From a virus, in IMG/VR virus record IMGVR_UViG_3300009130_001466, positions 48,802-112,801 of that record: 64,000 nt of DNA. One strand, written 5' to 3'. The number at the start of each line of letters is the position of its first letter. The first letter of the stretch is position 1. The notes below the pieces were generated by a model that saw only the letters and a program-made list of their open reading frames with translations, ran no database searches and was not told the DNA's origin. A program made the translations under genes and the position numbers. Shown one piece after another: positions 12,843-41,035 of the stretch.

Positions 12843-12914
12843 AATAATCCTTATCCCCAATATACGTTACACTTTTTTAAGAGGCTGGTTCTATTTTCTA
12901 GTGTAATTATACAT

Positions 12915-13373
12915 ATGCCAAGCTCTTTAATTTCGGAATCTCAAAAAAACACAATCAAAACTATCATTGACGATATTCATGAAACCTTCGCTAGAAATAT
13001 TACTGTCTACGAAGAAGGAAGAAAAATATTAATTGCTGCTAGTTCTGAATACAATGGCATTTACGGCAAAACAAGTGGGGGAGAAACCTCTACCACTAAA
13101 ACGGTTGTTAGCCATATAATAAAAGCAAGAATCAAATATATAAATTCAAGAGAGGAAAATTTAGCTGGCGCAGGCATAGGCTCCCAATTGGATATAAATT
13201 TAATTGATGGCTCTGTAAGAATAACCGTAGATGAGGGCGGTTTTGAAATTTTAAAAGAAGCAAAGAGATGCGAATTTGAAGGTCGAAAATATACTATTGA
13301 CAGCAAAGGAAATCCAACTGGTATTTTTGGACCACAATATTATCATTTTTATCTATCGCCAATTGAAGAATAA
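12915..13373 (+). CDS. putative head closure/head-tail adaptor protein
   Basis: Start reassigned to the ATG 8 nt after GTGTAA (12901-12906); small beta-rich protein at the head of the neck block. Confidence 0.5.
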   Translation: MPSSLISESQKNTIKTIIDDIHETFARNITVYEEGRKILIAASSEYNGIYGKTSGGETSTTKTVVSHIIKARIKYINSREENLAGAGIGSQLDINLIDGSVRITVDEGGFEILKEAKRCEFEGRKYTIDSKGNPTGIFGPQYYHFYLSPIEE

Positions 13374-32880: not shown

Positions 32881-32929
32881 TTGACATTTTATTTTTTATG
32901 TACATAGTGTTTGTTATTGATCTTTGATA
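32881..32929 (+). promoter_or_regulatory. sigma70-type promoter plus boxA-like antitermination element of the tRNA operon
   Basis: TTGACA-N16-CATAGT, then TGATCTTTGATA (rrn boxA is TGCTCTTTAACA). Confidence 0.65.
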
Positions 32930-32950
32930 GTTTATTTTTTGAAATTTTTA

Positions 32951-33264: not shown

Positions 33265-33324
33265 TTTTAACACACCCAGTGATCCTCTTCTTCATTGAAT
33301 GATCATAAAGGCTGGGTACATTTT

Positions 33325-33520
33325 ACACAGGCGGTGTTGAAAGTAGAAACACTGCGTGGGCCAGCGTCCGAGGAAGGCGGAATATCGACTCGGTTAATTC
33401 TATGGCATTTTCGTGACCGTAACTGCAAAACGCGAAGCGCATAGAAGCATGGTGATCGATTGGTAATCGTAAGCCTAGTTCCACAAAGACCGTAATAGGA
33501 GTAACGACCTATCCTGTGTA
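33325..33520 (+). ncRNA. tRNA-like RNA with a ~120-nt branched domain in place of the anticodon loop
   Basis: Acceptor ACACAGG/CCTGTGT+A, D-like GTGTT/AACAC arm, T-like ATAGG/CCTAT arm, internal helices. Confidence 0.6.
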
Positions 33521-38237: not shown

Positions 38238-38665
38238 AAAAATTAATCTTACTAACATTCGCCATCTGCGCATCAATAGCACAAGGCGCGACATTAACTG
38301 ATTTAATTGTTGCTTTAGAAAAAGTGGAAAGCAATTGCAATCCTTCCGCTTATAACGAAAGCGAAAAAGCGTTAGGCTCTCTTCAGATTAGACCTATCAT
38401 GTTGGCTGATTATAATCGCATCTATGGCACGAATATAAAGCACAAGCAAATGTCAAACCGCTTGACTTCCCATAATATCGCAATCGGAATCTTTCGTCAC
38501 TATGAAAAGTATATCAAACGTAATGGCGAAAAGTTAAATGCAAAACATCTTGCCTTCGTTTGGAATGGAGGAGGATCAGCTTGGAAACGGGTTGCAAATC
38601 CGAAAAGCGACAAAAAGCAAAAAAATCTAGAAATTTACTGGACAAAGGTCTCAAAGCATCTGTAA
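38234..38665 (+). CDS. secreted lysozyme-fold (SLT/i-type-like) muramidase
   Basis: Signal peptide MKKLILLTFAICASIAQG; VES catalytic Glu, GSLQI, WNGG. Confidence 0.7.
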   Translation: MKKLILLTFAICASIAQGATLTDLIVALEKVESNCNPSAYNESEKALGSLQIRPIMLADYNRIYGTNIKHKQMSNRLTSHNIAIGIFRHYEKYIKRNGEKLNAKHLAFVWNGGGSAWKRVANPKSDKKQKNLEIYWTKVSKHL

Positions 38666-38687
38666 GTTACTGGTATTCAACGACTTA
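38663..38687. repeat. solitary 25-bp palindrome box
   Basis: TAAGTTACTGGTATTCAACGACTTA; supplies the stop of the muramidase gene. Confidence 0.85.
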
Positions 38688-39058
38688 CGCAACAAAAAAA
38701 CTTTAATCTTTTTTCAAAATCGCTTGACAGCCTAACCTTTTTTCTTATTCTTTTTTAAGCATTAACAACATCACTTTATGATTGATAAACGAACAGAAAA
38801 ACAAATCAAGAGGCTCTTCTCGGTGGTAGTAGACGACTCACTCATGGACGCTGACTTTGAATATGTCCAAGCAGCTATTGCTTGCGTTCGTAAAGAGTGT
38901 GATCAAGTTGAAGAATACATGAAGGAGATGGATAGACTTGCTGATGAAGATTCTATATCTAACACAATATGAGACAATTCACCAACGGCGACACGGGCGA
39001 GGTCAAGACTATAGCTGAGGTCTTTGCCCTAATCCGCGAAGAGAGAGAAGGAGAGCCG

Positions 39059-39133
39059 TAAGTCTCTGACAGTCAACGACTTACGGGCCCAGGGCCGCGC
39101 CCGCCGCGCAAGTGCTTGATATACAACGACTTA
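39059..39133. repeat. 75-bp double-palindrome element, copy 4
   Basis: Boxes at 39059 and 39109. Confidence 0.95.
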
Positions 39134-39204
39134 CGCAACAAAAAAACTTTAATCTTTTTTCAAAATCGCTTGACAACCTCACCAAAATTCTTATTGTTTT
39201 AATT

Positions 39205-39387
39205 ATGACTACTACTGATTCCTTCTCTGATTCTTCTTTTGACCCTTGGGCTGACTTGTCCGAGGCCGAGTTCGCTGAGTTCGAAGCCGATATGTTGCGC
39301 GAGCAACAGGAGCGTGAAAGCGCCGAGGCGATGGCTCACGAAGCTCAGCTTGAGCGCGAGCTTATGGAAAGAGCCGACTTCCGCTAA
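39205..39387 (+). CDS. small highly acidic early protein
   Basis: MTTTDSFSDSSFDPWADLSEAEFAEFEAD; promoter upstream. Confidence 0.65.
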   Translation: MTTTDSFSDSSFDPWADLSEAEFAEFEADMLREQQERESAEAMAHEAQLERELMERADFR

Positions 39388-39396
39388 GGGGTTGCG

Positions 39397-39471
39397 CAAG
39401 CCCTTGACAGTCAACGACTTACGGGGCCGAGGCCGCCCCGCGCGCGTAAGTCCTTGATACTCAGCAACTTA
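39397..39471. repeat. 75-bp double-palindrome element, copy 5
   Basis: Boxes at 39397 and 39447; core identical to copy 1. Confidence 0.95.
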
Positions 39472-39639
39472 CAGAGGTTCCCGAAATTCATTTCGGGAAC
39501 ATACATAACTGCTTGATCATTAGATATATACGCTATTTGTCTTGTATTTGCGTTCGATTTGCGTTCGATTTGATTTGGCGCTATTTTTTTTCAAAAAAGG
39601 GTTGACTAATGCCCAAAACAATACATAATGTAAAACATA

Positions 39640-40068
39640 ATCGTTCTTTAACATTTTACAATTTAGACAAGCGAGTCCTAGAAGCTGGTAGATGAAATTG
39701 CTTTAGTAGGCTACCAAGGTTAAGCAAATCGTTTGTCTCTTATCTAACTCGAAGAAAGCCAGGTAAACAGCCGAGCATGGGGATCTGCTGGCAATGCGTC
39801 GAGGACAGCGTGGGGGTGCGTTGATAAGATTGATTAGTTAAACACCCTCAAGATTTAACCTCGCTTGGATGACGTCTGCCTTAGAAGGGCATCCCCAAGC
39901 CAACTGGATTCGCAAATAGCGAAGAGGGAGTTGCCACTGCTCTGAGGTTTTAACATTTTAAGCGGAGAATTTGAACGCTCGACCTAAACGCCTAAAGGGT
40001 TCACCCAAGCGGAAATGAGTCGAAAGACCGAGAGCGCCAACCAATTGAAACAGGTTATATCCGCACCA
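39640..40068 (+). ncRNA. boxA-led multi-domain non-coding transcript ending in a CCA acceptor-like stem
   Basis: Promoter TTGACT(39602)/CATAAT, boxA CGTTCTTTAACA, four helix-closed domains, no ORF. Confidence 0.65.
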
Positions 40069-40153
40069 ATCTAAAAAAACTATTGACAAAGCTCAACTTT
40101 TGTGATTTAATATAATCTTAACAATCGAAAATCCAAAACGGAGAAAAGAAAAC

Positions 40154-40405
40154 ATGAAAAACCTAAAACTAAATCCAATCCAAAAAACTCGCCTTGCTAT
40201 TCGTCGCGCTTTCGCTAAGAATAATATGGCTCAAATCACCTACAAGAAAAAGTCTGATGAGACTGTTGGCTCTTATGTCATTGACATGAATTTCATTGAA
40301 GACTTGGGCGATATGTTCAACACCTATTCTTACGCCACTGGCGCGAAGCACAGCGGCATCCGCTCCTTCTATAAAAACCGAATCGAAAAAATTAAACTTG
40401 TGTAG
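40154..40405 (+). CDS. WYL-like/SH3-fold small protein
   Basis: ITYKKKSDE...GIRSFYKNRI. Confidence 0.55.
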   Translation: MKNLKLNPIQKTRLAIRRAFAKNNMAQITYKKKSDETVGSYVIDMNFIEDLGDMFNTYSYATGAKHSGIRSFYKNRIEKIKLV

Positions 40406-40559
40406 CGTGATTGGTTAACGTGTGTGTGCCGCCTCGTCTTGTGGTTAGGGCGAGGCGGCTTAAATTTCTTTTGTTGTAGTCGTGTGCAACGTGTGTGTGC
40501 CGTCTTACCTTTTGTGTATGGGGTAAGGCGGCTTTTCGCTATATGGATCAAGAGTTCTG

Positions 40560-40634
40560 TAAGTCCTTGATGGTCAACGATTTACGCGGCGGGGGCCAGC
40601 GCAGACCCGCAAGTGCTTGATAATCAACAACTTA
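40560..40634. repeat. 75-bp double-palindrome element, copy 6
   Basis: Boxes at 40560 and 40610. Confidence 0.95.
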
Positions 40635-40706
40635 CGAATTCAAATAAATTTAAATAAATTTTTAAAAAGGGTTGACTCGTCGAATTAAATAATACATTAT
40701 ACTAAT

Positions 40707-40997
40707 ATGAAAATGACAAAAACAACTACAGAAAACCTCACCCTTGAAAACTCATTCGGAACAATCCGCGAAGAAAATGGAGTCCAGATGAATATATCCG
40801 TGCATGTCCAGCCAAACAAAAATTATGGTTCGTTTGAAATGTATGACGAAGAAACTGGAGGTGAAGAATGGTATGCCGAAGGAGGTCTTTGGTTTGAGGG
40901 CAAGGAACTGGTTGACTACGATGGAGTTTTTGCTCTATCTCCGTCAATTATTCAAATCTTAGAAGACAAAGGTTATGATGCTTCTTATGCAAAGTAA
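40707..40997 (+). CDS. hypothetical early protein
   Basis: Leaderless; GGLWFEGKELVDYDGVFAL. Confidence 0.7.
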   Translation: MKMTKTTTENLTLENSFGTIREENGVQMNISVHVQPNKNYGSFEMYDEETGGEEWYAEGGLWFEGKELVDYDGVFALSPSIIQILEDKGYDASYAK

Positions 40998-41035
40998 TAC
41001 TTGACTAATCACAAAAAATAATACATCATATCAAC

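Follow-up and report, generated by a model that had tools for sequence, protein, structure and literature searches.

The window analysed here is a stretch of 64,000 nucleotides taken from a 112.8-kb IMG/VR virus record, the genome of an uncultured phage found in marine/seawater metagenomes. The record encodes a tape-measure gene, a terminase and rIIA, and database searches yield only remote relatives among cultured phages. From 36.2 to 44.5 kb, the window contains an array of small cassettes on the + strand, spaced by a repeated element of about 114 nucleotides. An earlier note, made from the letters of this DNA, described a non-coding RNA unit between copies 5 and 6 of the element: this placement is borne out (Table 1), and the features it listed, namely the promoter, the boxA-like motif, the ORF-free stretch, the closing pairs and the 3' ACCA, are all in the sequence where it had located them. 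In six related loci, found through the downstream 83-aa gene, the flanks are kept and two small protein genes replace the RNA; the slot is variable among close relatives.

Table 1. Features of the RNA cassette and its surroundings, in window positions.
Feature	Position	Strand	Remarks
Repeat element, copy 5	39372-39485		upstream of the RNA cassette
Sigma-70-type promoter, TTGACT-N16-CATAAT	39602-39629	+	consensus scan, 10/12
Untranslated leader with boxA-like core CGTTCTTTAACA	39630-39664, core 39642-39653	+	
Linker repeat TAACATTTTA, first copy	39649-39658	+	3' part of leader; direct repeat of 39951-39960
Domain 1 (D1), predicted hairpin	39665-39738	+	AGACAAGCGA/TCGTTTGTCT, 10 pairs, one G-U
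Domain 2 (D2)	39739-39856	+	CTTATC/GATAAG, 39739-39744 with 39823-39828
Possible pseudoknot in D2, TGGGGGTG/CACCCTCA	39811-39818 with 39843-39850	+	single-sequence prediction
Domain 3 (D3), four-helix-junction RNA, 93 bases	39857-39949	+	model R1
Linker repeat TAACATTTTA, second copy	39951-39960	+	between D3 and D4
Domain 4 (D4)	39962-40068	+	GCGGA/TCCGC, 39962-39966 with 40060-40064, then ACCA 40065-40068
Putative promoter (TTGACA 40083-40088) and Shine-Dalgarno leader of next gene	40083-40153	+	
83-aa gene	40154-40405	+	ORF; same cassette, downstream
Two intrinsic-terminator-like hairpins	40428-40532	+	terminator scan; first after the 39602 promoter
Repeat element, copy 6	40535-40648		downstream of the RNA cassette

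The + strand carries no ORF longer than 28 amino acids between 39609 and 40153, or about 440-450 untranslated bases. A conserved short ORF might have explained the region equally well: none was found, and the homologues of D3, presented below, differ by indels of 4, 7 and 19 nucleotides, which rules such an ORF out for D3. A coding origin of the region was also rejected, since there is no ORF and tblastx relates none of D1, D2 and D4 to a cassette gene; in D3, the tag-like frame ANSEEGVATALRF is not retained in relatives.

The closing helices proposed for the four domains can all be drawn at their places. The z-score of the minimum free energy (MFE) of the whole region is +0.43 on the + strand and -0.25 on the - strand; the values by domain are -2.2 for D1, 0.0 for D2, about -1.1 to -1.2 for D3 and -1.0 for D4, and stems of at least 5, or at least 6, pairs are as numerous in dinucleotide shuffles as in the sequence. 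Both the helices and the folding energy of the single sequence are no better than chance. Structure is thus neither supported nor refuted by these measures: D3, whose fold is supported by covariation, itself reaches a z-score of only -1.2. The covariance-model scan that had been suggested recognises no family, with nothing at the gathering threshold of Rfam 15 over the region and, within the window, only tRNAs elsewhere. A Hairpin ribozyme candidate in D2 was discarded as noise, with 14.4 bits against a cut-off of 65.

We now turn to the comparison of relatives. A degenerate 20-mer, taken from the loose ends of metatranscriptome contigs, leads to 19 metagenome loci, 15 of which have D3 homologues, and a search with a two-block pattern adds one more, L144. 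The family then comprises 16 loci and 10 distinct sequences, all from marine contigs: nine of these sequences form alignment A2, to which L144 is added. With RNAalifold and the alignment, four helices, P1 to P4, are found around one junction. P1 is the outer helix AACCUC with GAGGUU (AACCTC/GAGGTT in the DNA, 39857-39862 with 39944-39949); P2 is a long arm whose tip varies in every lineage while the hairpin is always formed; P3 pairs UUCGC with GCGAA and has, in some relatives, extra nested or duplicated hairpins; P4 pairs GGAG with CUCU and bears the invariant loop UUGCCACUG. The tips of P2 and P3 vary in sequence and in length, with their hairpins retained, and the junction bases, the P4 loop and all three GGA triplets are invariant.

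The homologue search that the earlier note proposed thus reveals a conserved, covarying structure. The 24 pairs of the model are formed in 98.6% of the cells of the alignment, against 26-56% in a control in which the partners are slid by 1-3 columns. Three pairs (7-44, 56-83 and 93-103) are compensatory, with changes A-U/G-C, G-C/A-U and G-C/U-A, and the covariation score is reached by none of 500 shuffles. G-U pairs make up about one eighth of the cells and are compatible with the + strand only; the four-helix fold is the MFE structure of 6 of the 8 variants. D3 is a real conserved structured RNA, and it founds a new, well-supported family, whose model R1 recognises the D3 of the window with 98.1 bits. 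There is one copy in this genome; R1 finds none in five related virus records and none in the RNA of the tRNA operon of the window. The two-block pattern has no match in prokaryote genomes, blastn with D3 queries has none in cultured phages, and Rfam has no match for D3. In a population variant of DNA run X4, the small P3 hairpin is duplicated in tandem (39908-39923, with insertions behind 39913 and 39915), and other lineages have a nested extra hairpin at the same place.

Of the four folded domains initially claimed, the comparison confirms the structure of D3; it supports D4 weakly, through two or three near-identical variants, and leaves D1 and D2 without comparative support. The folds of D1 and D2, and the D2 pseudoknot, stand as single-sequence predictions. 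No homologue of D1 or D2 is found in any locus compared, although D1 is also present in a 489-nt contig of run X4; exact words of D1 and D3 gave nothing in viral contigs, nor did searches of cultured phages.

D1 to D3 also share short identities with rIIA, on the - strand of this genome: 39724-39755 with 54311-54277 (29/35), 39781-39799 with 54098-54080 (16/19) and 39897-39911 with 53842-53828 (15/15). A collinear cluster this strong, along the sense strand of rIIA, appears in 4 of 1000 shuffles (p about 0.004). One of the blocks codes for N-W-I in rIIA and falls, in D3, within the invariant junction; the rIIA gene of a relative has none of the shared blocks. Descent of D1-D3 from rIIA was rejected, as the signal is weak and the cluster is probably due to chance.

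The relatives differ in the modules that they hold. In L011, the promoter and leader, 88% identical to those of the window, run straight into D4: the segment corresponding to 39666-39948, which covers D1-D3, is missing, and the junction consists of two adjacent copies of the linker that stands at 39649-39658 and 39951-39960 in the window. Run X4 contains a leader-to-D4 joint with GAATTCGACCGC as well as the full D1-D4 form, the latter with the duplicated D3 hairpin. Six loci (L127, L132, L138, L140, L144 and L130) have promoter, leader and D3 only. In L134, the leader is followed by an unrelated module X and then D3; in L141, by D3 and then an unrelated module Y, with the linker TAACATTTTA after D3. 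In L125 and L137, D3 stands behind a gene and the leader is absent. In a distant group formed by L129, L133, L135, L136 and L142, D3 comes after TTGTTCTTTGAATAAA and before ten to fifteen tRNAs. The motif AACATTT lies directly ahead of modules in most D3 contexts, and immediately before them in L127, L134, L141 and L125.

Modules X and Y have no homologues in any locus compared. Since the same is true of D1 and D2, and D4 occurs only in L011, D3 is the shared core and the rest is exchangeable periphery. The arrangement of these loci supports the view that the modules are autonomous, that they are shuffled among relatives, and that they are swapped at (T)TAACATTT linkers. The description of the RNA as a modular cassette is upheld by the shuffling of leader, D3 and D4 in L011, L134, L141 and others.

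Other units were seen in these loci. L011 has, at 1187-1345, a second cassette with a CATAATCGTTCTTTAA leader and a degenerate tRNA-Ser(GCU)-like cloverleaf, with an acceptor stem of A and U only and no CCA, called by ARAGORN only at a 90% threshold; the 5' strand of its closing stem is provided by the leader. On the - strand of the same locus, at 12860-13075, lie a promoter, AGTTCTTTAACAATTT, an RNA of about 190 nt that has no ORF and contains a T-arm-like CGGTTCGAGTCCG, and a tRNA-Arg. The sequence TTGAATGATCATAAAGGCTGGGTAC is common to L129 (3147-3171), L142 (984-1010) and the window (33300-33325, between tRNA-Asn and tRNA-Lys): as it occurs in both phage groups, RNA modules seem to be shared across operons and lineages.

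Is everything but D3 simply filler? D1, D2 and perhaps D4 could be decayed genes, tRNA remnants or recombination scars, non-functional and lying beside a functional D3. Neither homologues nor an excess of folding energy are found for D1 and D2, L011 does without D1-D3 exactly between two linker copies, a similar cassette of L011 holds the degenerate tRNA-Ser-like unit, and D1-D3 share with rIIA the cluster of identities described above. However, the rIIA signal is weak, no translated similarity links these domains to any cassette gene, D1 and D2 are retained in the second population variant, that of run X4, and D4 is 97.9% conserved in L011 where its flanks are at 88%. We consider filler an improbable account.

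The promoter that heads the unit is recovered by a promoter scan. The boxA-like core CGTTCTTTAACA is present as described and is the sole match in the 64-kb window, a match that arises in 8 of 100 shuffles. The homologous cassettes of L011, L127, L134, L138, L140, L141 and L144 have the same type of promoter, with GTTCTTTRA 13 nt after it. Among the loci compared, the motif of all 10 promoter-plus-GTTCTTTRA units sits 10-13 nt after the -10 box, and all 10 units enter ORF-free RNA: the boxA-like leader, which with the promoter stands at the start of every non-coding cassette found, is confined to such cassettes, one L011 unit ending in a tRNA-Arg, and the D3 copies that stand behind a gene, in L125 and L137, have no boxA. 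In the tRNA operon of the same phage, a looser boxA-like TGATCTTTGATAG occurs in the leader, at 32918-32930, about 15 nt after a promoter-like TTGACA...TACATAGT.

The core agrees with the rrnB boxA of E. coli, TGCTCTTTAACAATTT (NC_000913.3), in 10 of 12 positions, and in 15 of 20 with the flank. It is close to the consensus GCUCUUUAACAA, and it lies, like the boxA of rrn operons, in an untranslated stable-RNA leader or spacer. The third unit of L011, AGTTCTTTAACAATTT, which precedes the RNA and tRNA-Arg, matches the rrnB boxA in 14 of 15 positions. The variant GTTCTTTAACAATTT is found in the 16S-23S spacer of an uncultured gammaproteobacterial genome (G011), where TGTTCTTTAACAATTT lies between the 3' end of a tRNA and the start of the 23S rRNA, the usual place of a spacer boxA: the variant with U for C is consequently a natural rrn boxA. 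As a 15-mer, it is barely commoner than a reversed control in 301 Gammaproteobacteria, and a scan of viral contigs with the leader 15-mer gave matches that are mostly chance.

As judged from these sequences, the phages would reserve an rrn-type boxA for their non-coding cassettes, and this suggests that the host rRNA antitermination machinery is used. In rrn operons, boxA acts with NusB/NusE, NusA, NusG and SuhB; it prevents the Rho-dependent loss of long untranslated transcripts, and the Nus factors with SuhB aid the folding of rRNA (PMC4807359). Such a role fits a 450-nt untranslated structured RNA.

No terminator-like site is detected by a terminator scan between 39602 and 40427. As no terminator follows D4, the unit probably extends through the 83-aa gene as far as the hairpins at 40428-40532. 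Each of these hairpins (40417-40532 with their surroundings) comes after the same AACGTGTGTGTGCCG. The 83-aa gene has no Pfam match and is 61-98% conserved in six relatives that lack RNA modules; the segment ahead of it, 40083-40153, is identical over 51-65 nt in L002 and L011, and its TTGACA at 40083-40088 is not called by the promoter scan.

Contigs of one DNA run and of three seawater metatranscriptome runs, each from a different study, were compared over 38600-41000. A 218-nt contig of the RNA libraries corresponds to 39874-40090, that is, D3 through D4, and a second one to 39853-39946, or D3; a diverged D3-like 33-mer appears in contigs of all three RNA runs. RNA-library contigs with D3 thus come from three studies, and one spans D3 through D4; they establish presence, without ends, strand or level, and may include DNA carry-over. 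No RNA-library contig of the runs compared covers 39668-39852, in D1 and D2, which proves nothing either way. RNA-library contigs of two runs stop matching at 40469, past the first terminator-like hairpin, where variants continue into tRNA-like sequence.

The modules might form a long structured 5' UTR that stabilises or regulates the downstream mRNA in cis, and not free small RNAs. The missing terminator between D4 and the 83-aa gene favours this, as does the position of D3 in L127, L138, L140, L144 and L134, about 30 nt before an ATG with only a degenerate -35 box. Yet D3 also stands behind a gene in L125 and heads the tRNA operon of the L129 group, and it is followed by different genes in different loci (for the ORF next to it in L144, this genome has no homologue). 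In relatives that have no RNA module at all, the 83-aa gene retains a conserved promoter region of its own. We therefore think a cis-acting leader unlikely.

D4 was said to have a CCA end and a T-arm-like AACC/GGTT hairpin, and both are present, but tRNA models do not recognise the domain. The hairpin, of 4 pairs around a 10-nt loop, is separated by 3 nt from the acceptor-like stem, which has no G3-U70 pair. Among the loci compared, D4 has a homologue only in L011, found with a 23-mer of D4: it is 97.9% identical, and its two changes, C40042 to T (a C-G pair becoming U-G) and C40051 to T (in the loop), keep the AACC/GGTT hairpin. At default settings, neither ARAGORN nor the Rfam tRNA model (RF00005) makes a call over 39602-40068, and ARAGORN at an 80% threshold makes only a poor call on the - strand; the Rfam tmRNA model (RF00023) has no match in the genome at E-values up to 1, and detects the control genomes. 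D4 was consequently rejected as a tRNA or tmRNA.

The modules could nevertheless be aimed at translation or ribosome rescue, with D4 resembling a tRNA or the acceptor part of tmRNA and D3 mimicking the 5' part of tmRNA contacted by SmpB, so as to titrate a host factor. D4 has, in order, an acceptor-like stem, an unpaired stretch, a long arm, a hairpin, the stem again and ACCA; its 3' context is like that of the phage's tRNAs; L134 has a true minimal tmRNA acceptor domain as a cassette of its own (56 bits, cut-off 47); and CTGGATTCG and CGGGATTTGC follow each other in D3 of L127 as they do within bases 11-30 of E. coli tmRNA. On the other hand, the Rfam tRNA and tmRNA models and ARAGORN miss both D3 and D4 on the + strand, the D4 hairpin has the irregular geometry given above, and the second tmRNA-like block varies among homologues and makes up the 5' strand of P4, a helix that covariation proves. 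A role in ribosome rescue strikes us as very doubtful.

Two observations concern these tmRNA likenesses. The two blocks in D3 of L127 are separated by the P3 hairpin (window 39903-39935 against E. coli ssrA, L145). The L134 cassette, at 1767-1930, has its own TTGACA promoter and a 68-nt minimal tmRNA (1829-1896): the acceptor stem has a G3-U70 pair, UGGAUUCGA is the D-loop analogue, and a single short hairpin, a canonical T arm and CCA are also present. It lacks a tag frame and pseudoknots, and might serve as a decoy for AlaRS or SmpB.

RNA anti-CRISPRs are a class of solitary CRISPR-repeat mimics, and it is highly improbable that D4 carries one: the 33-mer at 40019-40051 (+) begins with GTCGAAAGACC and ends with ATTGAAAC, like the 37-nt repeats of Pasteurellaceae, and weakly matches Rfam CRISPR-DR54 (20.5 bits, E 0.038 in a 118-nt search), but this score is below the 39-bit cut-off, the middle differs, the segment is 4 nt shorter and lacks the hairpin of the repeat, its last base is changed in L011, the + strand of the window has 10 occurrences of ATTGAAA[CGT], and 185,579 species genomes contain no array with such spacing and about the chance number of single matches. 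The segment was not retained as a solitary CRISPR repeat, as only its first 11 and last 8 bases match the Pasteurellaceae repeats.

The finding is real as a non-coding cassette, and the evidence supports a non-coding transcription unit inside the early cassette array; the earlier note is thus partly confirmed as an observation and partly supported in its interpretation, in which processing, the chemistry of the CCA end and a regulatory or decoy role are inferences. The reading that we favour, and hold to be probable, is that of an early non-coding cassette transcribed by host RNA polymerase, a boxA-led chain of modules with D3 at its core. Transcription would start a few bases after the -10 box at 39624-39629, and the first 30 bases would carry an rrn-type boxA, most likely recruiting the host NusB/NusE (S10)-NusA-NusG, as their sequence and context suggest. 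With these factors, the approximately 450 untranslated bases would escape Rho termination and fold during transcription.

The transcript itself would string together self-contained, helix-closed modules by means of U/A-rich (U)UAACAUUU linkers, at which, as the relatives show, the phage lineage gains, loses and re-orders modules. D3, some 90 nt folded into a four-helix junction whose junction and loop bases are invariant while the helix tips vary, would be the conserved core; D4 would be a second and rarer module ending in CCA, and D1 and D2 lineage-specific additions of predicted structure. The pattern of invariant bases in D3 points to a specific partner, most likely a host protein or RNA, and thus to a stable small RNA that probably acts in trans.

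One may go further and propose, quite tentatively, that D3 is the core of an undescribed class of trans-acting early phage RNAs that bind, and disable or redirect, a host factor, and that are assembled into boxA-led arrays by swapping at the fixed UAACAUUU linker. The target might be the machinery of translation or ribosome rescue, or else a GGA-binding regulator, the latter because all three GGA triplets of D3 are invariant. If this conjecture is true, boxA-led arrays built by module swapping are the RNA counterpart of the phages' system of protein-gene cassettes.

Small RNAs encoded by phages are far less charted than phage proteins. R1 adds a new RNA family that can be modelled, is supported by covariation, and is present in marine phage contigs of many samples and in ocean RNA libraries. 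The loci also give a picture of RNA modules changing places at one short, fixed linker, within an array whose exchange of protein genes was already known. The D3 fold, its invariant bases and its natural variants, with their swapped tips and duplicated hairpins, provide handles for pull-downs and mutagenesis.

Among known systems, the tRNA-like domain of tmRNA (RF00023) resembles D4 in the order of its elements, in its closed 5' and 3' ends and in the final ACCA; D4 differs in failing the family model, in its non-canonical hairpin in place of the T arm and in having no G3-U70. The cassette of the L134 minimal tmRNA is, like that of D4, a single-promoter cassette followed by an A-rich run and the next TTGACA. 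With the boxA of rrn operons, the phage motif shares its core (10/12) and a place close to the start of a long transcript that is structured and untranslated; in the relative L011 the motif stands ahead of a tRNA, and the variant GTTCTTTAACAATTT occurs in a bacterial 16S-23S spacer. The phage motif, however, heads a 450-nt RNA cassette and not rRNA, and neither a boxB hairpin nor a boxC is seen in its leader.

The genes of RNAC and RNAD of phage T4 lie in the T4 tRNA cluster, and D3 heads the tRNA operon of the L129 group: both are cases of small non-coding phage RNAs associated with tRNA genes. The T4 RNAs have no sequence or Rfam relation to D3, and we know of no description of modular shuffling for T4. 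RNAC and RNAD are small stable RNAs of unknown function and are classed as late RNAs (PMC9697503), whereas this cassette has a host-type early promoter. The uncatalogued structured RNA in the tRNA operon of this phage (33687-34269) and large phage-associated RNAs such as GOLLD and ROOL belong, like the D1-D4 unit, to stable-RNA operons of phages and have domains that fold separately; the D1-D4 unit differs in having its own promoter among protein cassettes and in being made of small modules, of 75-118 nt.
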